From: Iphione sp. A-MEVVRFRX5
Lineage: Eukaryota
Assembly (NCBI GenBank): GCA_976226885.1
Contig: OZ320317.1
Span: forward strand, 40,858,001 to 40,922,000
Reading direction: 5' to 3'
DNA length: 64,000 nt
The notes beneath the pieces were generated by a model. That model did not search any database and had not been told where the DNA came from. It saw only the letters and a program-made list of their open reading frames with translations. The position numbers and the translations under genes were made by a program. Positions within the stretch are counted from its first letter, which is position 1. Each line of letters opens with the position of its first letter. Positions 4,314-33,672 of this stretch are shown in pieces.

Positions 4314-7008
4314 TCGCTTTTTATCATCTCATCGCGTTTTGTTGTCTGATTGCAATTTGCCCTATTCCCTCTCATGCTTCTCATTTTGTATCTGTCAATT
4401 TGCATTTCAAATTCTAAAGCTAATGGGCCTAGTTCCCCGTCCATGATTTATCTAGTTAAATTCCGTCAGTATTTCTATTCGGAAAAAGAAACTCTAGAAC
4501 TCGTTCATTAAAGCTTATACCAGCTATACACAAATTGCTGGCTTGAAATGGTACTTTTTATGTACGAGTACCAACGATTACGTACTGATCGGACTTTCTA
4601 GATAATGGGGGAGGGTACTCAAGAGGGACATTTTAGTAAATAGAGTCTTTCAGAGATGTTATAGGAGATGCCCCAATCGCAGGGAAAAGGATTTGTGTTC
4701 AGAGCATAGAATAACTACTAGACACTATGGACATATTTTGCAAGTATTGTTCAGACAGATTGCAGCATAGGGTATGATGCTTGCTATGCTGTATTCCGCG
4801 TGTTCCACCCAGTGATTTTAACCAATTCTATTGTTTTACACCCTTTCCTTTCTGTTTCACAGCATTATGTAAAATGGTTAAAGAAGGCATGTCTGACGAA
4901 CTGAGAGGCAATTGTTCCTCTAGAAAACAGCGTAGTCACTTGGCTGTTGTTAAAGGCCGTTGATGCTTAGAAAATTCTTCCACTCAAAAAGAGAATTTTT
5001 CTACACTAGTAGTATAATTGCGGAGACGTGCTGGGTCATGTTTATCGTCTAGTGCGTAGCATTTGTAACAATTGAATTTGTCATAATATTAACGGTGTCA
5101 TTTTCAAGGGAGAAATTGACAAAAGAGAGTCATTACATAAAAGTAGTAAGCAAAAAAAAGAAAACATTATGCATTTATTTTATATAATTTTATGTCTTAA
5201 TAAAGAAGGTTATAGGACATCATAAGTGATATCTTTAGTATTGTCCCACTAAGGATTCATTAAAAACTGTTGATAAGCTCCATAGATAAACCCTCTAGTG
5301 TTTCACAGAACTATCTAATAATGTAATGATAATTTTCTGTTATTTAAAGTTTTAAATCATATTTGTATTACTATGTCTACAAAATATATTAGCATGCTGA
5401 ATTCTGAGGTTCTTAAAAGTCTTGTGACAGATTTTCCATCATAACCCAGTGTATTTTCAATAAGATTTACGTGACAGTGGATAGCCCACAATATCATCTT
5501 GTTTTATGCAAAAATGAAAGGAATCCACCAAAAAGCAATCATGTGACCTCTGGCCTTAAACTGTCGATCATATATGATTGATTTTTCCTTCTTGGTCTGG
5601 AAGGGGTTAAATGTTATGACAAAAATACCTTGATTAGAAGATTCACACCTGGTAGAAAGAACCTCCCACGGAGGATCACACGTATTACCATTTGCTGCTG
5701 CTGATGTTTTAGTTACCTACCACATTGATCCTTCTCATGATATGGAAACTGCTCGCTTTACAAAGGTTTGCTATACCTGTGATGCTATTACTAATATATG
5801 TCCTCATTGTGATCTCAAACCCTCGATGAAACAGGCAATATTCAAATCTCTCTAGATTACCTTCCATATAATTGTTTACTTAATACAGGGTTTATCTGAT
5901 TTCAAAAATGATCCTTTTTCATCATCAGTATCCATTTCTCTTTTCTTCATTTATTTGTGATTAACATATTATGTTTTAATCATAAAGACCACATGTATTT
6001 ACTTATTTATTTAGATTGTGAAACAAAGGAAGGATCTGAATCGCTTCATTCCGTGCTCATGCAGTACAAGTACAGCAATAGCACCCTCTGCTTCCCATGC
6101 AGTATTTGATTGTGTCAGCACAACATGCAGTATATAGTGTCACGTGACTTTAGTTAGACATGTAAACAAACAAAATGTCAGACGTATTTATTTAGTTTTC
6201 AATCTACTGTAATATGTAGTCACGTTGATGTCTGGCATTGATACAGAGAGGTGTTATGTAAAATAACCAATGCTAATACAGAAAAATCTGGTTTATTCCA
6301 TGCGCGTTATCTCTGCTGGATGTAAGTCTCCCCAAATGCAATGGGAGAATATCTGTTTATTAAAAAGGTTCTTGCCTGTTATAAACAGATAGTACCCTGG
6401 TGGCTTACGTAATATCCTATGTTGCAATACATACAAAACACTTATTTCCGAATTTCTAAGTTGATCTGATCATCTGACCAACCACTATCAGACCAAGCAT
6501 TAAACCCGGAGTCGTAGTTCGTACATTAGACCATGGCGTCAGACCTACTCGTCTGATGATGTCATCTATCCACCACAGTATGTGTACTATAGACAGATAA
6601 TCAGGCCAATTTAATGCGTATCTATCTTGAAACAATTTTTTTTCAAAATAGGTAACCACTTTACACCAATTCCCGACAAATTTCCTGTTGCAGATGTGCA
6701 GATTTTGACTGGTACCAGCTCCCTGTTTTCACAAATGCTCCGCGATGTTGCTAGGATAGCAGGATACCGTAAGCTGCAAAACCAAAATTAATGTACAACT
6801 TGTTTACAAAATATATGACTTCACATTGTATTGTTCCCGAAAGAGGAATATAATAAAACAGACAGATTCCACATTTCCTACCGTATCACACCTCCACCCA
6901 CTTCAACTCCACCCATCACAGATACGCTCACTCCTGTTCTCTTACATCCATTCCCCTTGTTTGACTCACTTCTGGGATTTCGTACCTAGAGTGTTGCGAT
7001 GGTAAGAC

Positions 7009-8682
7009 GTGTTTGTTGAAAGCTCTCGTCATTTTCCTAGTAATTGGGCCGTGGTGTGCACAATTTTTGGTAAAATGGAAACAAGACAAACGAGGAGAGG
7101 AAGGGACAGTACTTCTAACCAACAGTCTGGTTCTTCTGATCAAGTCCATGAGAAAACAGGAGGTGGAAACAGTGAAAGAGGACTGGTGCCGACCGGGCCA
7201 TTACCTGGACGGCAAACTCCCCTATTACCGACCGGTGGACACAACGATCGACCACCGAAAACACCTACTGATAGAGAAAACGCGACACCTGGCAGCTCTA
7301 ACAAGGGGAGAAGGAATACAGGTGGTGGGGACCAAGCAATACCAACACCAGGTCAGATTCACATAAGCGAAATTCCTACACCCGGAATTAGAGGTGAGTG
7401 GTCGTCAGATAGACGCTTTGATGCCATCTTTACCTGTCTGAGTGAAATCAGGGCACAAAGAGTGAAGGATATTGAGTTATTTGATGTTGTGACAACGTTA
7501 AGAAAGGATATGGCTGCTATCAAAGTACGTCAGCAGAAGTTAGAAAGCAAGGTTGCTGATGCTCTAAAGAAAGTGAAGGGATCGATTGAGAGTACAGAAG
7601 CGGGTGAAGAGGAAATCAAATCGTTAGGGGCAAGAATTTCCAATCAGTCGTACATTGTTGCGGACGCGACAGCTAAGTTGACTCGTTTTGAGGAGACAGT
7701 AGGTAATATCAAGGAAGAAATTAAAGAAAACGAAGTCAAACAGAGGCGGCTCAACCTGGTGATAGACGGGTTAAATGAAGAAAAAGATGAGGACCTAGCT
7801 AAGGACTGTTTGGAAATATGTCAGGTTTCTGTTGAGGGTATTTCAGAGGATGAAATTTTCTCATGTAGACGGCTTGGAAACAACCCTACCGAAGATGCTA
7901 AAAATACCCGTAGGCCCCGCCCAGTCCTTGTCAGCTTTGATTCCGTAGAAACAAGGGACTCGATCTATAAAAATAGATCGCGACTCAAGGACGTCTCTCA
8001 TTATGCCAAGGTTATGCTGAGGGAGGACATCCCACCAGAGTCACGTGCCACACACCGAAAGCTGCATACCATAGCCACGTATGCTAGGAAGCAAGGTTAC
8101 CGGGCATCAGTGAAAGGACTGATCCTAGTGATTGACGGGGTGCCTTACCGGTCAACAGAGCTGCACCGCCTACCAAGTGGTCTGACTGTCGACGATGCCT
8201 TCTCATTGGCAGAAGACGAAAACTATTGTTTCCGAGGTCCGTTCCACAACCTGTCCAGCCAGTCTGAGACCAGGTTCAACTGCGACGGCTGGTGGGTAAA
8301 TTCGATCGAGCAAGCATTTCAGTTGAAGAAAGCTCTAACCCACGACCAGACCAAGGTGGTGGAACAGATTCAGAGCAGTTTATCCAGTGCTGGTGCAAGA
8401 CGTGTTGGCAATAGGATTGCAACAAGTGACCATTGGAATGAAAACCTGCTTGACACTTTGCGACACATTATTGAATGTAAGGTAGATCAATGTCCGGAAA
8501 TGAAGCGTGCTCTTCTATCAACGGGAAACGCTACCTTAGCTGAAGCTTCTCCTCACATGGTTCTCAGCACCGGTTGTCTCTTGTTTGACCCTAAGATAAG
8601 TGCTAAAGAATGGGAGGGTGAGAACTTTCTTGGTCGGGTCCTAGTAATGGTAAGAGACAATTTGCGAACCTCCACAAACTAA
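7009..8682 (+). CDS. LINE ORF1 (disordered N-terminus, coiled coil, RRM-type region) fused to a C-terminal NADAR/YbiA-like domain; likely ATG at 7075
   Basis: Heptad-like region ~7480-7750; NLVIDGLNEE...CRRLG...RPRPVLVSF...MLREDIPPE typical of ORF1 RRM; C-terminal SIEQAFQLKK, W..., KVDQCPEMKRALLSTG, LAEASP, GENFLGRVLVMVRDNL. Confidence 0.85.
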   Translation: MFVESSRHFPSNWAVVCTIFGKMETRQTRRGRDSTSNQQSGSSDQVHEKTGGGNSERGLVPTGPLPGRQTPLLPTGGHNDRPPKTPTDRENATPGSSNKGRRNTGGGDQAIPTPGQIHISEIPTPGIRGEWSSDRRFDAIFTCLSEIRAQRVKDIELFDVVTTLRKDMAAIKVRQQKLESKVADALKKVKGSIESTEAGEEEIKSLGARISNQSYIVADATAKLTRFEETVGNIKEEIKENEVKQRRLNLVIDGLNEEKDEDLAKDCLEICQVSVEGISEDEIFSCRRLGNNPTEDAKNTRRPRPVLVSFDSVETRDSIYKNRSRLKDVSHYAKVMLREDIPPESRATHRKLHTIATYARKQGYRASVKGLILVIDGVPYRSTELHRLPSGLTVDDAFSLAEDENYCFRGPFHNLSSQSETRFNCDGWWVNSIEQAFQLKKALTHDQTKVVEQIQSSLSSAGARRVGNRIATSDHWNENLLDTLRHIIECKVDQCPEMKRALLSTGNATLAEASPHMVLSTGCLLFDPKISAKEWEGENFLGRVLVMVRDNLRTSTN

Positions 8683-8902
8683 TAATGTATGTCTTTTTTT
8701 CTTTTCAGTTGAGGACTCCATGCCATTGTGACTGTTGGAAATTAACAGGATTGACTGTATTCCGGAAGCGTGAGGAATTAGGGTTTCTCTCACATTGGTA
8801 AGGTTGTCCGACACTGAACTGTATTGAAAAGTCTGATATACTGTCTTTCGTTTATGGGGATATGTCAGATAATGTTGGTTGAATCAGAGCATTTATTGTC
8901 TT

Positions 8903-9030
8903 GTATTCTTTACGATAAATGTTACTGTTGAGGTGTTTAAAATGGACTTTCATTTCCAGTATGACAGTATTCTTTACGATAAATGTTACTGTTGAGGTGT
9001 TTAAAATGGACTTTCATTTCCAGTATGACA
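8903..9030. repeat. Perfect 64-bp tandem duplication in the LINE ORF1-esterase spacer
   Basis: 8903-8966 identical to 8967-9030. Confidence 0.95.
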
Positions 9031-9182
9031 AAATTTTTTCTTTTTTTAGAGATTAAATTGTAGGTGCTATCGTTGTGAGATCGTGCAACAGAATCACAGG
9101 ATTGACTGTTTTTTCTGTTAAACGAGGTCGACTACTACTTGATACAGCAGAATAGCAGGATAGACTGCCTTCTTCTCTACAC

Positions 9183-9809
9183 GTGGCATACTGCAAAATG
9201 GTGCAGAAAGTCCTGGTACTGTCAGACTCCCGTGGACGTGATGTCAGGGAAAGCTGGATCCCGTATTCAACTAATCAGATAAGAGTGAATTTTGTTATCC
9301 AACCAGGGTTGGGTTATGAAACAGTGTTTTTCCTGCTAAAACAGACCTGGGTAAATAACTATGATTTCGTGTATGTGTTCATGGGAATTTGCGATGTGAC
9401 TCGTCGCTTTAATGGTCGAACAACACTACGTCATAAGAATACTTCTAACTACCTGCTTAGATACCAGGCAATACTTAGTAGACTGTCGGGACTGGATTCG
9501 AAGGTACATGCCCGTATTGTCTTATGTCCTATCGTGGGCATTTCCCTTCAGCGATATTCGCCGCAGACTTATTCATTAAGAATGCAGGTCGAATTAAACA
9601 CAACAGTATGGGCGATTAACCAATTGATTAGACAGTTTAACTCAGCTAGAGGTGTCTTTACACCAAGTCTTTCCAGTCCTATACATGTATTGAAGAAGAG
9701 TCGTCGGACTAATAACTACAGCTATCTTAGTGATGGTTGTCATCAAAAAAGAAAAGTATCAATGAAGTGGGTTGACCAACTCGCACTTGCAATAGTAAAG
9801 AATTATTGA
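9183..9809 (+). CDS. SGNH/GDSL-family esterase-like ORF inside the LINE (ATG at 9198)
   Basis: Block I VLSDSRG, block II QPGLG, block III FMGICD, block V LSDGCH (DxxH). Confidence 0.8.
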   Translation: MAYCKMVQKVLVLSDSRGRDVRESWIPYSTNQIRVNFVIQPGLGYETVFFLLKQTWVNNYDFVYVFMGICDVTRRFNGRTTLRHKNTSNYLLRYQAILSRLSGLDSKVHARIVLCPIVGISLQRYSPQTYSLRMQVELNTTVWAINQLIRQFNSARGVFTPSLSSPIHVLKKSRRTNNYSYLSDGCHQKRKVSMKWVDQLALAIVKNY

Positions 9810-9904
9810 TTCTCCAAGGTCGGGAATTCTCGTATAAGATGTGCAGACTACCCGGTTCATGACTGGGTTATGGCTTTACTAACACTTTTTACTAATTCGC
9901 TATT

Positions 9905-12595
9905 ATGTCAAAACCTTATTTCTTCTTTTGGAACATGCATAGCATAGTTAACAAAGTCAATGAACTTGATGATATTTTTCTAAAAATGCCTATTGCTATT
10001 TCAATTACAGAAACATGGCTATCTCCGTCCTTTGCGGATGGTCTCATACATAGGGATAACTATAACACCTTTAGACTTGACAGGAAGATAGGAACAAAAC
10101 AGTCAGGAGGTGGAGTCCTAGTCTATGTATTGGACAATGTTATGGCAGATTTGTTGAGTGCTGAGAGCTTAGGGTTTGTTGAGGCAATATGGTTAAAACT
10201 GAAGATTCCAAATCGTAGGCCAATGCTGCTAGCATGTATATATAGGCCACCCAATGCCTCCACTGCACAATTTCTTGAATATCTCTCCGAATCAATGAAG
10301 AAAATGGCTGGTCAAGACCGAGCACATATCGTAATTGGGGGGGACTTTAATTGTAATTGGCTATCCGAATCCACCTTAAAGCGAGGTTCAGAGAATTTAA
10401 TGTGTACTTATAATGCAATGCAAATAATAAACGAACCTACTTTCCATCATGGTACAGGATCATCAATATTAGACTTAATCTTTACTAACCTTCCTCACAT
10501 CAATATGTCAGGAACATTAGATAAACTGGCGAGTGATCACCTTCCCACCTACTTGGCTTGTAAAATGCAAAAGTTAGAGAGGCCGGAAAAGGTTTACTCA
10601 AAACGTGTATGGTATGAGTACAGCCCAGTGAAACTGTGTGCTTTCCTTGATCCCATAGTCAAAGCCGATACAGAATTGCCTGTGAGTGCCATAGACCGTT
10701 GGGATAGGTTTGAGGAGGGCCTACGTCAAGCTAGTGCTGTACTGTGCCCTTTAAAGCTAACAAAATCCAATTACAGGAAGCGCTGGATGACACATGAAAT
10801 AATGGAAAATATTAGGAATCGTAACTATTTCACTAGACAATTCAGGCTGAAAAAGAATATAGATGATTACAGGGTGGCAAGGTTTTATAAAGACAGGGTG
10901 AGGAAATTAATCAGGCAAGCAAAAAAGTCTTATTGGATCGAGCAACTGGATGGTTGTGTTAATCCAAAGGAATACTGGGGGGTCATAAATAAATCCTTAG
11001 GACGAATACGATCTAGCTCAAAGATAAACCTCAAGGAAGATGGTGTTGAGGTCCCTGAAGATATAGTCCCCACTGTACTAAATGAATTCTTTGCTTATTC
11101 AACAATACAGGATGCACATGACGACAACGAGAGTGTGAATGACTATTTGGACGAGACGCAAGGATGCTTCAGTCCCACAACTGTAAAGGAGTTGCGTCAA
11201 ATACTCCAACAATTAAAAGTGACCAAGCCTTCAGGGATAAGAGATGTCCCCATGAGAGTACTTCGTGATGCCCTTCTGCTTTATGTTGAGTTTATTAGAG
11301 ACATGCTTAATGAGTTAATTCAGCTTCAAATATTTCCAGAAAGATGGAAATTGGCGAATATAACCCCTAGCCCTAAGAAACCCCCTTTCACTGACAAAAG
11401 AAATTACCGCCCGATTTCTATATTACCTGTAATAGGTAAAGTCTTTGAACGTGTGATCTATAATCAAATAACATTGTTTACAACTAGGGAGGGTATCATT
11501 GATAATTCTCAGCATGGATTTCGTGAAGGGCGGGGGACCGAGACTGCAGTGGCCTCCCTGCTTAGTAAAGCATATGAAACTATTGACTCTGGACAACACT
11601 TTGGTATGGTAATGATAGATTTTTCCAAGGCTTTTGATGTTATTGATCATGTTAAATTATTGGGTAAGTTAGGAAGGATGGGCATGGGGTCTGCTAGATT
11701 AAATCTATTACGTTCATATTTAAGCAATAGAAAACAATGTGTATGCTGTAACGGGACTCAATCAGAATATATTTCAGTTAGGCAGGGAGTGCCACAGGGC
11801 AGCATTCTCGGTCCCCTCCTCTTTACATTAATGATTAATGATATTGGGGAATCACAGAAAGTGACACAATTAGTTATATACGCAGATGATGTGACCCTGA
11901 CTGCTAGTGCTGTTAATATAGTAAGTTTGCAGTTAAAACTGCAACATGGTCTTCGGATGATAAGTGAATGGTCGCAGTTAAATGGGTTGAAAATAAATCA
12001 ACAGAAAACGACCTATACTTGCTTTGGTAAGAGTAGACTGTTTGACCTAGATATTTGTTTAAATAATCAAGCTTTGAAGCACGACAAAATTCCAAAACTA
12101 CTGGGCTATCAACTTGATCCCATGCTTACGTGGATACCACAAATGAAGGCAATAAGACAACGTGTCCGTAGTCGTAGTATAATGATGTCCCGTTTATGTG
12201 GTCAACTTCCCTATACTGCCAGGGTTAAAGTATTCATGGGCTTCATCCAACCGTTATTTTTATATTGTCTTGCCTTTATGACTGGGGCCACGAAAAAGAC
12301 TATGTTAACATTGCAAATTGAGTACAATGTAGCTATAAAGAGGGTGGTGCTATCTAGTACGGCAAGGCGTTACGTGAGTGCTAAGAGAATACGTGAAAGA
12401 CTATCGTTAATTTCATTGAAAGATTTGTCTGAGATAAGAGCTACTTCACTCATACACAGGTTACACCATCAAGGACTGCTGAGAAGTCAGATAAGAGGGA
12501 GAACTCGAGGAGGAAGAGTCCACCAAATCCGATTGAGGAAAGCACGATTGACCACAATTAAGAAGAGTTTTCTCTATGTGGGAGTTAAAAAATAG
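9905..12595 (+). CDS. LINE ORF2: APE endonuclease plus reverse transcriptase; probable premature TAG (reads through to 12664)
   Basis: WNMHSI, ITETWL, GGGVLVY, YRPP, GGDFN, ILDL, SDH; NYRPISILP, QHGFR, DFSKAFD, GVPQGSILGP, YADD; ends GVKK*NSL where K-W-N-S-L is expected. Confidence 0.95.
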   Translation: MSKPYFFFWNMHSIVNKVNELDDIFLKMPIAISITETWLSPSFADGLIHRDNYNTFRLDRKIGTKQSGGGVLVYVLDNVMADLLSAESLGFVEAIWLKLKIPNRRPMLLACIYRPPNASTAQFLEYLSESMKKMAGQDRAHIVIGGDFNCNWLSESTLKRGSENLMCTYNAMQIINEPTFHHGTGSSILDLIFTNLPHINMSGTLDKLASDHLPTYLACKMQKLERPEKVYSKRVWYEYSPVKLCAFLDPIVKADTELPVSAIDRWDRFEEGLRQASAVLCPLKLTKSNYRKRWMTHEIMENIRNRNYFTRQFRLKKNIDDYRVARFYKDRVRKLIRQAKKSYWIEQLDGCVNPKEYWGVINKSLGRIRSSSKINLKEDGVEVPEDIVPTVLNEFFAYSTIQDAHDDNESVNDYLDETQGCFSPTTVKELRQILQQLKVTKPSGIRDVPMRVLRDALLLYVEFIRDMLNELIQLQIFPERWKLANITPSPKKPPFTDKRNYRPISILPVIGKVFERVIYNQITLFTTREGIIDNSQHGFREGRGTETAVASLLSKAYETIDSGQHFGMVMIDFSKAFDVIDHVKLLGKLGRMGMGSARLNLLRSYLSNRKQCVCCNGTQSEYISVRQGVPQGSILGPLLFTLMINDIGESQKVTQLVIYADDVTLTASAVNIVSLQLKLQHGLRMISEWSQLNGLKINQQKTTYTCFGKSRLFDLDICLNNQALKHDKIPKLLGYQLDPMLTWIPQMKAIRQRVRSRSIMMSRLCGQLPYTARVKVFMGFIQPLFLYCLAFMTGATKKTMLTLQIEYNVAIKRVVLSSTARRYVSAKRIRERLSLISLKDLSEIRATSLIHRLHHQGLLRSQIRGRTRGGRVHQIRLRKARLTTIKKSFLYVGVKK

Positions 12596-14800: not shown

Positions 14801-15753
14801 GTCTTAGCCATTTCCCATTGGTTCTGGGCAGGGATGTATTTTCAGGTTTAATTTGCTGAGACACTTTTTTTCATAAGTTCTATTTTTCACACCTAGTTAA
14901 CTATGTTGATACCGTTATGTAGGGTTTATCTTATTGTCTCTACTGAACTAAAGAAGCGGTTCAGGATTCAGGGCTCAGAACACCACAAGACATTGACCAG
15001 ATATTCACCTATATTACCTCCTTCTAAAGCTAGTAGAAACACATTGTACAATACATGTTACACAAGTTGTCTAAATCGAGATACAGTCAAATGATGTGAT
15101 GTGAACAACCCTCCATACTTTGCCAAAGTGATCGCAGTATTTCTTTGCGCCATCTACTTATATCTTATGAAAATACAGGGGCAGATGGTAAATGACGCAG
15201 GTAGCTAAAAAGGGACAATTTTAATGAGTAAGCACTACAAGAGTGGTGGATTTGACAAGTTAACTTCCAATAAAGGGCAAATCTTGTTAAAATATACCTC
15301 CTAAATATGTCAAATTTGATGAGTAAACATTCCAAGAGCAGCAACTTTGATGTGTAGTCACAGGGTGGCTTGACGGCTGTATGGTCGGGTCGCATTGTTG
15401 TATTGTGATACCTAGGTCAACAGTGCCAAAAATTTCCGAAGTGAATGGAATACATTTACATGCACCGGCTAATAAAGACACAGACCCACATATGCATGTT
15501 TGCATGCATACATTCCACAGCCTTATGATTGCCTCTACTTTAGTGTATACCTCAAAATGACCTGGTGTGTCATATTATAAAACACATTGTACACAGAAGA
15601 AACGCCCGTTAAGATATACTTTACCTGGAAAACAAACATTTCTCAACTTCTTGAACATAAAATTTCGCGAGTAGTGACGTTTGAGTTACAAGGCCATGTG
15701 TAACTATGCAAAATTCAATCTGTGCCTGTTGTGCTTATTTCGGTATTAGCATT

Positions 15754-15873
15754 GTGGGGGCATGGATATGGCCAATCATTGCGACATGGCCTCACCTGAT
15801 CCGCCCCCTCCCTTCTGTGGGGACTACATAAGACCCCAACTAAATCGATCGACGCAGTTGTCGCCGGAAAGCT
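15754..15873 (+). repeat. Repeat A1 (left terminus; CCAAT and degenerate TATA)
   Basis: gccaatca near 15771; TACATAAG at 15825 where A2 has TATATAAG. Confidence 0.9.
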
Positions 15874-17061
15874 GTGACGATGGGACCCAAGAAAGTACCG
15901 AACCAGACTGACGATGTCGGAACTGACCACGATATAGTGGTCACCGACGCCAAGACGATAGAAAATACACCTGCCAGGAACAAGAAACCATGCATGGTGG
16001 ACCGGCTCGACAAGCTGGAAAGGGCTGTATCTGAGATTTCCGCACTCAAATCTCAAATTAATCAGCTTTCCAATTTATTGCAGAATGCTGTTACCCCAAC
16101 GGTCCCTATGGCGACTACTCCCACTGAGCAACAACCGGTGCAGCTTTCGGCTTCGGTCAAACCTGCCTCAGCCACAGTTACGCAACCTGGCCTCATGGGG
16201 CAACAGGGTCAACCGGTCCCGACGGGTCTACGAATCATACGTCCGGTGCAAACGTACTCAACACAAGGCATGCACCAGTATGACACATCCCTGCCAATGC
16301 AGCTACGAGCCCCGTCTCCGTTCCCTGATACGAGTCACCTGAGGAAAGGCCCTGCCGTCCAGCAGTTTGTGGACTCTTATTTAGACGCAGCCGCCCCTTG
16401 GATGCACACACCACAGGCCCGAGGTAATTTTGACTTTCACCTTCGTAATTTAATCCCCCACCCGCATATGTATCTGGACAGGGAAGGCTGTAATTCTACA
16501 AAAGCTAAAAACGATGCGAAAGACAATATTTCTTACTTTGAATACGTCCCAGCCTATCTGGCTATGTTGCGTGATCATCAGTCAGTACCCCCTCACGAGA
16601 GGCCATATCTCATGGACCATCTTTACCAGGTAACCCAAGACGCACAAAATCGTCCGTGGAGAAACGTCCGTAAGTGGTCCAATTGGGTGTTCGATAAAAT
16701 TGAAACAAATGAGATGTCATGGGCTGACCAGCAGACCATCGCCTATGAGCGGTTCAGGGTGAGTAATGCCCCGGTAGATAAACAAGAGGCGTTGGAAGTT
16801 GTCTGCCCAAATTACTCCTCCGGTTCATGCACCGAAAAACATGAGTTTCATCAAGAGGGCAATATCCGTTTGCAACATATATGTGGTTTTTGTCATATTA
16901 CCTCGGGCGCTTGTTATAGCCATTCTGCTTCGGTCTGCACTAAGAAATCTAGGTACACTACACTCCAGAGACAGCCAGCACTTGGCCAGCCCCAGCCTTC
17001 AAAGCAGCATGCGACCACATCGGCCGTTTCAACACGTTCATCAGCTGCTCCCTCGGCTTAA
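15874..17061 (+). CDS. Ngaro gag-like ORF1 (ATG at 15880) with C-terminal Cys/His zinc-finger-like region
   Basis: 395 aa; short coiled coil, Pro/Gln-rich linker, CPNYSSGSC...HICGFC...HSASVC. Confidence 0.88.
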   Translation: MTMGPKKVPNQTDDVGTDHDIVVTDAKTIENTPARNKKPCMVDRLDKLERAVSEISALKSQINQLSNLLQNAVTPTVPMATTPTEQQPVQLSASVKPASATVTQPGLMGQQGQPVPTGLRIIRPVQTYSTQGMHQYDTSLPMQLRAPSPFPDTSHLRKGPAVQQFVDSYLDAAAPWMHTPQARGNFDFHLRNLIPHPHMYLDREGCNSTKAKNDAKDNISYFEYVPAYLAMLRDHQSVPPHERPYLMDHLYQVTQDAQNRPWRNVRKWSNWVFDKIETNEMSWADQQTIAYERFRVSNAPVDKQEALEVVCPNYSSGSCTEKHEFHQEGNIRLQHICGFCHITSGACYSHSASVCTKKSRYTTLQRQPALGQPQPSKQHATTSAVSTRSSAAPSA

Positions 17062-18824
17062 AAAAACGAGTAAATCCGGCTCCGCCAACTCAAGCGGAGC
17101 CTGCTAAGGCTCAGCACGACGCCGTACGGTCAGGTAATGACCCTATCCACATTAATTTTCATGATGTACGCTACCAATGTGCACAGGACTTTCCAAACTT
17201 TTCCGGGATATGTGACCTGGCCATTCTGGCTGCATACCACAGGGAGAACTGGCCATCGCCAGACTTAGCAGTCTTGTCCCCCTGTATGGTGTGCATATAC
17301 GATTTGGCCAGGGCCAATGGATACCCCAACGTGGTCGGGGCACAGGTGAGAGTACCTTCAAACCTCAATATTGATGCATGGTCTCGTTATATTACCGACA
17401 GCGACCCTGATCCGCAGCTTATTGATTTGATGATGTACGGTTTCCCCCTTGGTTATCTCGGCCCTATGTCTAATAATCGTGGACAATCCAACCACCCTTC
17501 CGCCATCAATTATCTGAGCCATGTGGAACTTTTTCTTCAAAAAGAACTCGAGATGCGGGCTCTTCATGGCCCTTTTGATTCCCCTCCATTCACCCAGTGG
17601 TGCCATTCATCGCCATTGATGACTAGGCCCAAACATGACTCGGATGCTCGCAGAATCATCACCAACATGTCATTTCCCCCCAAGGCATCTGTAAACGCAT
17701 TCATTGCAAAAAATATGGTGTTAGGTATCCAGCATGACCATTCCCTTCCAACTATTGACTTACTCTTGGCCTATATTAGGGAAAGGCCAGCTGATGTATA
17801 CCTGTTTACAATGGACATCGCCAGGGCCTATAAGAATCTACCCTCATGCCCATTGGATTGGCCGTTGTTACTCTTTGTTTGGAAAGGATGGTATTACATG
17901 GACACAACTGTTCCCTTCGGCACCCGCTGCTCATCAAATCATATGCAGCGGGTGGCTGATGCTGTGGTATGGATCCTTGCCAAAGAAAATATCGCTGGTC
18001 TTATGTACCTCGATGATTTGATTGTTTTTGCAGAAGGAGAGGCCATGGCGCACAAGGCATTCTGCAGAGTCCGGGAACTCTTTGGGGAACTCGGCCTCCT
18101 GGAAGCACAAGATAAAACCCAGTCTCCTGCACGACGAGTGGTCTGGCTTGGTATTCAGATTGATACTGATTTTATGGTTGTTTCTATACCACAGGTCAAG
18201 ATCGACGAAATCCTGGAACTGGTGAAACGGAGTGCAGCACGACGAACGATCACTAAGAACGAACTCCAGGGACTCATTGGAAAATTGCTGTACATCGCCC
18301 GGTGTGTCGTCCCTGCGAGGCTGTTCGTTGCCAGGCTCCTTGAGTTGCTGAGGAGAGGTAAAGGATGGCATTATTGGCTTGGACATGAGGCCAAGAAGGA
18401 CTTGCAATGGTTCATATCCTTTTTGGCAGAATGGAATGGGAAGGAGATCATCGGGGCGAAGGCTGTGTCAGACACCATTGTTGCAGACGCATGTCTGGAA
18501 GGACTGGGGGGTGCCAGTGGGACTCACTACTATGGGGTGCCTGCCCCAGAAGGAATGGAGGGTATGCACATCAGTCAAGTGGAGGCCATCAATGTGGTAC
18601 TTGCCATTAGAACGTTTGTATCCAAGGCGCAGGCTGGGTCACGTGTTATCGTACGCTGCGACAACATGCCTGCCATCCAGGTCTTAACGAGCGGGCGGGG
18701 GAGAGATCCCCTCATTCTGGCATCAGCCCGTTCCTTGTGGTTGCACCAGGCACAAACGGGGCTTGAGTTGACTTATGAACATGTGCCCGGGGAGGACATG
18801 AAATTGGCTGAAGCCCTCTCATGA
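16953..18824 (+). CDS. Ngaro pol (RT plus RNase H); frame open from 16953, overlapping gag in the -1 frame, first ATG at 17286
   Basis: RRIITNMS, MDIARAY, VPFGTRCS, YLDD, WLGIQID; DACLEG, HISQVEA, CDN, HVPG...AEALS* (TGA where ALSR is expected; the frame continues to 18929). Confidence 0.93.
   Translation, partial: VHYTPETASTWPAPAFKAACDHIGRFNTFISCSLGLKKRVNPAPPTQAEPAKAQHDAVRSGNDPIHINFHDVRYQCAQDFPNFSGICDLAILAAYHRENWPSPDLAVLSPCMVCIYDLARANGYPNVVGAQVRVPSNLNIDAWSRYITDSDPDPQLIDLMMYGFPLGYLGPMSNNRGQSNHPSAINYLSHVELFLQKELEMRALHGPFDSPPFTQWCHSSPLMTRPKHDSDARRIITNMSFPPKASVNAFIAKNMVLGIQHDHSLPTIDLLLAYIRERPADVYLFTMDIARAYKNLPSCPLDWPLLLFVWKGWYYMDTTVPFGTRCSSNHMQRVADAVVWILAKENIAGLMYLDDLIVFAEGEAMAHKAFCRVRELFGELGLLEAQDKTQSPARRVVWLGIQIDTDFMVVSIPQVKIDEILELVKRSAARRTITKNELQGLIGKLLYIARCVVPARLFVARLLELLRRGKGWHYWLGHEAKKDLQWFISFLAEWNGKEIIGAKAVSDTIVADACLEGLGGASGTHYYGVPAPEGMEGMHISQVEAINVVLAIRTFVSKAQAGSRVIVRCDNMPAIQVLTSGRGRDPLILASARSLWLHQAQTGLELTYEHVPGEDMKLAEALS
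17061..17101 (+). promoter_or_regulatory. Putative -1 programmed frameshift signal: A AAA AAC heptamer plus 8-bp GC hairpin
   Basis: Heptamer 17061-17067 phased to the gag frame; gag-frame TAA at 17071; GGCTCCGC-caactcaa-GCGGAGCC at 17078-17101. Confidence 0.55.
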
Positions 18825-18925: not shown

Positions 18926-19282
18926 TTAAAGACTTTCTTTCTTCATTCAGATGCCCATGTCGCCCGGCTATCAGCACAGACACAGGCGCTGGTTGCAGCC
19001 GCATGCGCCCCAGGTACAATGGTAAATTGACGAGCGGCCGCGACCAACTATCTTCAGTTTTGCTGGAGGTATCAAGTATCGCCGTTTCAGCCAACAGCGC
19101 TGCAGGCGGCCATGTATGTTCAATACTGTGCCTCCAGGATGACTTTGCCCGCCTCCGTCGCAAACTCCATCTCTGCAGTCCGTGAATTTCTCAAGGACAA
19201 GGGTATTATCACTTCCGGGTTCGACGAACGCCCTGCTAGCCTGGCGCTGGAGGCGGTTAAGAGGACCTTCGGTCTTGGTTGA
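18926..19282 (+). pseudogene. N-terminal (core-binding) fragment of the tyrosine recombinase; catalytic domain absent
   Basis: ACAPGTMVN*RAAATNYLQFC...MYVQY...SVANSISAV...LALEAVKR, then a stop 21 bp before B1; no R/HxxR/Y motifs follow. Confidence 0.82.
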
Positions 19283-19303: not shown

Positions 19304-19715
19304 TTGGCATTTTACTGTATATTCATTTTATCAAACCAATTTACATGGTGACGGGTGAGAATAAAAATGTTTTCTCCAAGACATTTCTTGTATCATTATT
19401 ATCAGGGGAGTTATGATGAGCAATGGTGGGGGCATGGATATGGCCAATCATTGCGACGTGGCCCCACCTAATCCTCCCCCTCGCCTCTGTGGGGACTATA
19501 TAAGACCCCAACTAAATCGATCGACGCAGTTGTCGCCGGAAAGCTCCCACCCACCAAACCCTAATTATACATTAATTATTTTATATATTTCTATTGGCAT
19601 TTTACTGTATATTCGTTTTATCAAACCAATTTACATGGTGACGGGTGAGAATAAAAATGTTTTCTCCAAGACGTTTCTTGTATCATTATTATCAGGGGAG
19701 TTATGATGAGCAATG
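19304..19715 (+). repeat. B1 (19304-19425), A2 (19426-19545), 48-bp spacer, B2 (19594-19715)
   Basis: Direct alignment; AATAAA within B. Confidence 0.95.
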
Positions 19716-33175: not shown

Positions 33176-33268
33176 GCCTCTGTGGAGCAGTGGATAGGAG
33201 TGCCAGCCTTACCATGGAAAGGGAAAGGACCCAGGTTCAAATCCACCTCAGACCTCACACACTTTTTT
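33176..33268 (+). other. tRNA-like Pol III cassette (A box, B box, T6) inside the TIR element
   Basis: TGGAGCAGTGG at 33183, GGTTCAAATCC at 33234, TTTTTT at 33263; acceptor and T stems imperfect. Confidence 0.6.
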
Positions 33269-33672
33269 CAAAAATGTTCTAAAAAACGTTTTTAAAAAAC
33301 GTTTTTAGAACGTTTTTAAAAAAACGTTCTAAAAACGTTTTCTTATGTAGTTAGGAAAACATTATACAAACTTTCATTTACAACGTTTTAACAACGTTTT
33401 TTTACAATGTTTTTACAACGTTTTTAAAACGTTTCTGTGTTGGCTGGGAGAATGCCTTCATTGTTTATCAATACAATTTCATGCCTGTAAGTGGAATTAC
33501 ATTGATATATCCGTAGTAAATGACCTAAACATTGATGACTACCATAGGAAGCAAGGTAAATTTGTTTTAATCTCAGTATAATTGAGCAACATGTCTTCTC
33601 CTTTAAAAACCCTCTGCCACAAAATTAGACAGCGATAGCTAGAAACCCAATCAGGATGGCGTATTTCCTTAA

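Follow-up and report, generated by a model that had tools for sequence, protein, structure and literature searches.

A predicted −1 frameshift signal at the gag–pol junction of a Ngaro-type retrotransposon, with a putative in-phase splice to its recombinase

The window analysed here is a 64,000-nucleotide (nt) stretch of the genome of Iphione sp. A-MEVVRFRX5 (assembly GCA_976226885.1, contig OZ320317.1, positions 40,858,001 to 40,922,000, forward strand). It contains a Ngaro-type retrotransposon in which a gag-like open reading frame (ORF) is followed by a pol frame for reverse transcriptase (RT) plus RNase H and by the remnant of a tyrosine recombinase (YR). The signals by which these downstream frames might be expressed are the subject of this report. 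The element is organised as follows, in window coordinates.

15751..15873, + strand: split direct repeat A1, 5′ end of the element, 93% identity to A2
15880..17061, + strand: gag-like ORF1 with a C-terminal Cys/His cluster at 16804-16938, ending at a premature stop (17059-17061)
17061..18824, + strand: pol frame from the predicted slip site, with a conserved N-terminal block, RT (about 17709-18161; PF00078, E 1e-10) and RNase H
18951..19282, + strand: YR remnant with an internal stop (19028-19030), about the last two thirds absent
19304..19425, + strand: split direct repeat B1, 98% identity to B2
19423..19545, + strand: split direct repeat A2, pairing with A1
19594..19715, + strand: split direct repeat B2, 3′ end of the element, pairing with B1

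The element is classed as Ngaro-type by its anatomy, not by an RT tree with named Ngaro references, because it combines split direct repeats, an RT domain, no methyltransferase match and a recombinase remnant. Its repeats follow the order A1–coding region–B1–A2–B2, and no inverted repeat of the DIRS1 terminal kind flanks it. Both repeat pairs were found in six of seven relatives checked, the seventh showing the B pair alone within the stretch taken. The Cys/His columns of gag are almost invariant across 82 intact gags, and a Pfam search with ORF1 gave no match. Three pol proteins scanned at E ≤ 1 returned RVT_1 alone and no methyltransferase domain. The best matches of the window pol in the Protein Data Bank (PDB) are RT/RNase H chains, including that of Ty3 and some that are presumably of caulimovirus type; RNase H was assigned from one PDB match spanning the region and from what we take to be its motifs, and intact pol frames of relatives terminate shortly past it. 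The order of an RT/RNase H ORF and then a YR ORF was confirmed. The YR remnant aligns to residues about 3-110 of about 325 in intact relatives, both of the two intact recombinases scanned matched PF00589, and no extra hydrolase ORF lies downstream of YR in the seven loci checked.

The window copy is decayed. It carries premature stops in gag (17059), pol (18822) and YR (19028), its pol ends about 35 codons short of those of relatives, and A1 and A2 are just 93% alike. No second copy of its family was found in the 1.18-Gb genome.

The gag frame is open from 15844 to 17061, with an ATG at 15880. A preliminary description of this DNA had proposed a retrovirus-like −1 frameshift signal where gag meets pol, and its layout was confirmed. 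The pol frame, at −1 to gag, is open from 16953 to 18824 and contains no ATG before 17286. The sequence AAAAAAC is phased to gag as A AAA AAC, the next gag-frame TAA follows it, and an 8-bp stem (17078-17085/17094-17101) begins after a 10-nt spacer. The reading frames also bear out that a TAA ends gag just ahead of the heptamer.

17059..17061, + strand: premature gag stop, private to the window copy (1/119 heptamer-bearing loci)
17061..17067, + strand: slippery heptamer A AAA AAC, predicted −1 frameshift site (119/130 loci, 115 in phase with RT)
17071..17073, + strand: gag stop at the usual position of the family, one codon past the heptamer (equal spacing in 89/119 loci)
17078..17101, + strand: stem-loop, predicted frameshift stimulator (8 bp, 8-nt loop), a stem being there across relatives

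A_AAA_AAC is listed as a highly shifty heptamer in the consulted part of PMC5009743. On both strands of the window, 426 slippery heptamers occur, and a perfect 8-bp stem follows them at four separate places. One cluster of such heptamers with perfect 8-bp stems, at 33263-33300, lies outside long ORFs and is probably low-complexity sequence. The window signal alone is modest, and it is the comparison with relatives that makes the case decisive.

A protein search of the genome, in which 133 of 11,829 candidates were scored (48-69% identity, excluding the window itself), provided the relatives; the three weakest were left out, giving 130 loci including the window. Their median pairwise RT nucleotide identity is 56%, and they form 115 clusters at 80% identity and 118 at 90%. 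With no second copy of the window family, the comparison is one of sister families, the nearest relative having 68% nucleotide identity. Each junction segment comprised the 450 nt ahead of the position of the window's first ATG, and 650 segments of the same elements served as controls.

AAAAAAC occurs in 119 of the 130 junction segments, compared with 16 of the 650 controls, and in 106 of the 115 clusters formed at 80% nucleotide identity. It is phased with RT for a −1 slip in 115 of 119 loci, the remaining four being off by one base, and with the gag C-terminus in 113/117. This phase is kept over 27 distinct distances between the heptamer and the RT anchor (186-306 nt). Gag stops one codon past the heptamer in 89 of the 119 loci. 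Counts of Lys (71/72) and Asn (71/71) codons at the heptamer are circular, since rows had been selected for the motif, and the 119/130 figure was used instead. The exact heptamer is missing from eleven loci. Two of these carry A AAA AAT in phase, another two an in-phase variant one base away, and the remainder are damaged further or unresolved. Both A AAA AAT and the G GGA AAC of a metagenome relative described below (L183) retain the X XXY YYZ form. A genome-wide search with the junction pattern gave 105 matches, compared with 37 for its reversed control.

The stop at 17059 had stood as an obstacle to the proposal, and it proved to be peculiar to this copy: the window is the sole locus with a stop there, and the base at that site, from which the window deviates, is almost invariant in relatives (100/106). 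An assembly indel was ruled out as its cause, the upstream gag and the heptamer codons being in one frame. With the 17059 stop not shared and both heptamer and stem kept in sister families, the −1 frameshift reading of the junction is supported.

Over 100 different families of low copy number populate the host genome (G000), and in many of them the frames are open and the repeats near-identical, which suggests high family diversity with recent activity.

The run of six A present in 116 of the 119 loci could also act at the RNA level, with the polymerase slipping on it and adding a base to some transcripts. Such A6 slippage motifs are known in some RNA viruses. The phase of the heptamer is nevertheless fixed to gag codons (113/117), which transcript slippage would not need; L183 has just three A after three G; and a spacer of 7-8 nt fits a ribosome. 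We regard slippage by the polymerase as highly improbable.

How translation could enter the pol frame was assessed in 96 open in-phase junctions. Counted from the heptamer, codon 33 is Phe, codon 40 Cys and codon 64 Trp in every one of them (96/96), and all three precede the first ATG of the window (codon 76). The first Met follows a conserved IDF-like motif in 41 of 83 loci and precedes it in 42, and no Met position is conserved. In view of these invariant residues, and of a first Met that often follows the motif, translation likely enters the pol frame upstream, where the heptamer is the single fixed point.

These data also bear on the alternative that Pol has its own start codon, reached through an internal ATG, leaky scanning or an internal promoter, while the heptamer simply encodes a conserved Lys-Asn end of Gag. 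An early in-frame ATG does exist in some loci (the 42/83 above), and a promoter at the gag-pol junction is reported for the long terminal repeat (LTR) element Tca2 in the consulted part of PMC2194720. Against this, there is no conserved Met, and in about half of the loci invariant residues precede the first ATG. Selection on the protein would furthermore permit AAG and AAT, whose frequencies in pol are 0.57 and 0.52, and would keep neither the RT phase over 27 junction lengths nor a stem behind the heptamer. We consider a separate start for Pol most unlikely.

Among database proteins, KK[RQL] upstream of the pol block occurs in 7 of 71, against 5.6 expected, which gives no support. In one database protein, P0045, the Cys/His region of gag and the N-terminal block of pol share a single frame, and the join reads ...PKKRV.... 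This join, known from the protein alone, resembles the predicted transframe product.

The region behind the heptamer was folded for 106 cluster representatives (70 nt past the heptamer, 20 shuffles each, four control segments). The mean z-score is −1.42, with 39/106 below −2, compared with a mean of about 0 and 0-6/106 below −2 in the controls. Pairing of the 5′ arm peaks at 0.70-0.83, 8 to 14 nt past the heptamer, and the stem typically starts 7-8 nt downstream. The arms differ in sequence among subfamilies, and they pair better with their own partner (6.48) than with swapped ones (5.32 ± 0.12). In one 13-member subfamily pairing stands at 86.8%, three pairs carry changes on both sides, and 3 of 500 shuffles reach its covariation score. 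A simple scan for H-type pseudoknots gave 8/106, compared with 5-12 in shuffles, and thus no support for a pseudoknot. The stem of the preliminary description is conserved as a structure and not as a sequence, and the usual spacer is 7-8 nt rather than 10.

A further set of signals concerns the recombinase. In 68 intact loci, YR lies 0, +1 or −1 relative to pol in 29, 14 and 25 cases, respectively, and its conserved start is past the pol stop in all 68. Two sites elsewhere in the element, which the preliminary description had overlooked, match splice signals.

16421..16429, + strand: predicted splice donor 1, mid-gag, AG/GTAA at one aligned column, exon end 16423, intron start 16424, phase 1
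18934..18950, + strand: predicted splice acceptor ahead of YR, pyrimidine tract and CAG, exon start 18951, phase 1

The donor AG/GTAA is present at the same mid-gag column in 82 of 82 intact gags, always in phase 1. All 72 representatives have GGT as the Gly codon of the donor, compared with a background of 0.23, and another Gly column is mixed; the preceding codon ends in A in all 72. A script placed a pyrimidine tract and YAG exactly 56 nt upstream of the YR anchor in 92 of 119 loci, and inspection added 20 of the remaining 27, giving a phase-1 acceptor in 112/119. The script itself sought YAG, so that the evidence lies in position and phase and not in the letters. A Met between the acceptor and the YR anchor is found in just 29 of 82 loci. 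Donor and acceptor phases match, and they predict a spliced fusion of about 180-190 amino acids of Gag to YR, here called Gag(N)-YR. As an alternative donor for YR, the site after the frameshift signal was rejected, its phases splitting 59/58/2; phase 2 is scarce there because it would create a stop in pol.

YR has been proposed in print to be made by a frameshift (Poulter and Butler 2015, as quoted in the consulted part of PMC13003380). A second slip at the pol/YR boundary, with the splice-like sites incidental, would accord with that proposal and with the 25/68 loci in which YR is −1 to pol. The occurrence of YR in all three frames, together with an in-phase slippery site near the pol end in only 2 of 91 cases, argues against it, as do the conserved YR start past the pol stop in 68/68 loci and the agreement between donor and acceptor phases. 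A frameshift into YR is thus judged very unlikely, and splicing is the likely route to the recombinase.

The window contains the 3′ part of a second, unrelated YR retrotransposon (1-1307), with an RNase H end and then a 329-residue recombinase-like frame (domains labelled by eye), and a pyrimidine tract and CAG lie near 368 within it. A LINE-like element at 7006-12595 comprises an ORF1 of 558 residues, a 217-residue esterase-like ORF and an 899-residue endonuclease/RT ORF, likewise labelled by eye.

An additional donor-like site lies past the gag stop.

17131..17139, + strand: second donor-like site, whose intron would start at 17134, possibly for a Gag-only message

A donor-like motif 20-110 nt past the heptamer is found in 65 of 106 representatives, compared with 5-28/106 in ten control segments, and its phases are mixed (36 phase 0, 29 phase 1). 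The first such site is at most 55 nt from the gag stop in 52 of 66 loci, a short distance that would fit escape from nonsense-mediated decay. In several subfamilies it falls inside the 3′ arm of the stem. The motif is absent from all ten metagenome junctions tested. The second donor may yield a Gag-only RNA without the stimulator, or may be part of the stem structure.

The same motif could be the functional signal if Pol were instead reached by splicing, as pol is in foamy viruses. Its enrichment past the heptamer and a gap between gag and pol in 6 of 17 distant relatives would agree with this. The second donor is, however, within the pol frame and would remove pol rather than reach it, its phases are mixed, and it is missing from the 10/10 metagenome junctions. 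On these features of the donor, a spliced Pol is given very little credence, and −1 ribosomal frameshifting remains the very likely route to Pol.

Related loci were found neither among viral contigs nor in an initial metagenome scan. From a metagenome scan 80 of 86 related loci were kept, and 17 with a readable gag end and pol start were picked by hand. Their junctions comprise four of −1 type, six with an in-frame TGA-C, six with a gap and one with a long +1 overlap. In L132, L133 and L137, gag and pol overlap at −1, A AAA AAC lies in the overlap and a hairpin follows 7-12 nt further along; L183 carries G GGA AAC with a stop one codon later and no close stem. In a midpoint-rooted FastTree phylogeny (54 sequences, 532 columns), one clade (support 0.976) unites the elements of the genome, L132, L133, L137 and six database proteins, and the other junction types, including the TGA-C elements, fall outside it. 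The −1 mechanism is not general to the order.

In L138, L142, L145, L148, L170 and L203, gag and pol share one frame interrupted by a single TGA followed by C (6/6), which makes these junctions candidates for stop-codon readthrough. L134, L144, L152, L157, L177 (near-identical L176-L182, L192) and L187 have 26-235 nt between gag and pol, and their pol may be reached by splicing or initiated on its own. In L173, gag and pol overlap by 467 nt at +1.

Splice signals recur among these distant relatives. All ten of the hand-picked loci that match YR (10/10) have a phase-1 acceptor ahead of it as the best or tied-best site, and a phase-1 donor lying 520-740 nt upstream of the end of gag ranks in the top three for most with a long enough gag, L177 excepted. 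The splice therefore seems more widely distributed than the −1 slip.

Several observations weigh against a functional frameshift signal of this kind. The window copy would be unable to use it, as ribosomes would terminate at the 17059 stop; its spacer of 10 nt is longer than the typical 7-8 nt, and its fold z of −1.7 to −2.4 is modest. Of the 130 loci, 11 do not have the exact heptamer and a further four have it out of phase, with decay assumed rather than shown locus by locus. Just 39 of 106 representatives reach z < −2; RNAalifold on 25 sequences of two subfamilies returned no consensus fold, variable loops being misaligned; and the pair-count controls for the 13-member subfamily take no account of how the sequences are related. 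The donor matrix is approximate. Most of the evidence comes from a single host genome, and as a general mechanism the −1 type accounts for just 4 of the 17 hand-picked metagenome junctions.

Taken together, these results support a model, to which we assign a probability of about 0.86, in which the heptamer and stem form a programmed −1 frameshift signal for a Gag-RT/RNase H fusion, with a phase-1 splice joining the front half of Gag to the recombinase. From sequence, phase, conservation, the structural signal, the constancy of the splice sites and the lack of a conserved start, we infer the following events, products and ratios. Most ribosomes would complete Gag one codon past the heptamer. 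A minority, held up by the stem 7-10 nt further on, would shift one base backwards over the Lys and Asn codons and continue through ...KKRV... into pol. Splicing of donor 16423 to acceptor 18951 would give an RNA that lacks the frameshift site and all of pol and yields Gag(N)-YR.

A broader scheme can be offered only tentatively, and is doubtful as a whole. One Ngaro promoter might give rise to four messages or products, namely Gag, Gag-Pol through −1 slippage, Gag(N)-recombinase through a splice, and an RNA for Gag alone; in the last, use of the second donor in the 3′ arm of the stem, as placed in several subfamilies, would destroy the stimulator and switch Pol off. Across the superfamily, −1 slippage, readthrough at UGA-C and probably splicing would have replaced one another at the junction, echoing the retroviral repertoire in an integrase-free lineage.

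The X XXY YYZ heptamer, short spacer, downstream structure and gag stop just beyond are shared with −1 frameshifting in retroviruses and animal LTR retrotransposons, as described in the consulted part of PMC5009743. In contrast, the host element here is a tyrosine-recombinase retrotransposon without protease or DDE integrase, and its stimulator resembles a variable stem-loop, the simple scan having given no sign of a pseudoknot. In the first 300,000 of the 449,034 characters of PMC5009743, DIRS and Ngaro are never mentioned. The six metagenome relatives with gag and pol in one frame and a single UGA resemble the gag-UGA-pol of Tca2 from Candida albicans (consulted part of PMC2194720); Tca2 is an LTR element, and the window lineage has a −1 overlap instead.

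Retroviruses reach a 3′ gene such as env through spliced subgenomic mRNAs from which pol has been removed. The predicted YR message would likewise be obtained by removal of pol from the same primary transcript. Its donor, unlike that of env, is inside gag and in phase, so that splicing would fuse Gag(N) to the recombinase and not give a separately initiated protein.

With Ngaro elements of the order DIRS, as described in the consulted passages of PMC3783388, PMC3266345, PMC9210276 and PMC8547959, the window element shares the order gag, RT/RNase H, YR, the split repeats A1...B1 A2 B2 and the lack of a detected methyltransferase; a gag-to-pol mechanism is absent from those passages. The published proposal for YR is a frameshift, whereas the elements here carry splice signals. 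The literature consulted also included PMC6681497, PMC7192593, bioRxiv 10.1101/2022.06.16.496473, PMC9341512, PMC3212892 and PMC4495291, in passages of the main texts. In this literature we found neither a slippery site at the gag/pol junction nor a splice from Gag to YR described for Ngaro, and Poulter and Butler 2015 or Goodwin and Poulter 2004 may mention a gag/pol frameshift.

Expression of RT and recombinase in DIRS-order elements, whose ORFs often lack a start codon, appears to be an open question, for which a YR frameshift is the sole proposal found in print. Both mechanisms suggested here are textbook for retroviruses; here they would be combined, with exact sites, in a tyrosine-recombinase retrotransposon. 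A scheme in which a −1 slip at a defined site serves Pol and an in-phase splice serves YR makes the question directly testable, and it would correct the annotation of such start-less ORFs. Frameshift research also gains about a hundred diverged stimulators of natural origin, which follow a single heptamer. For the elements themselves, the scheme predicts that both enzymes would be packaged as Gag fusions without a protease.

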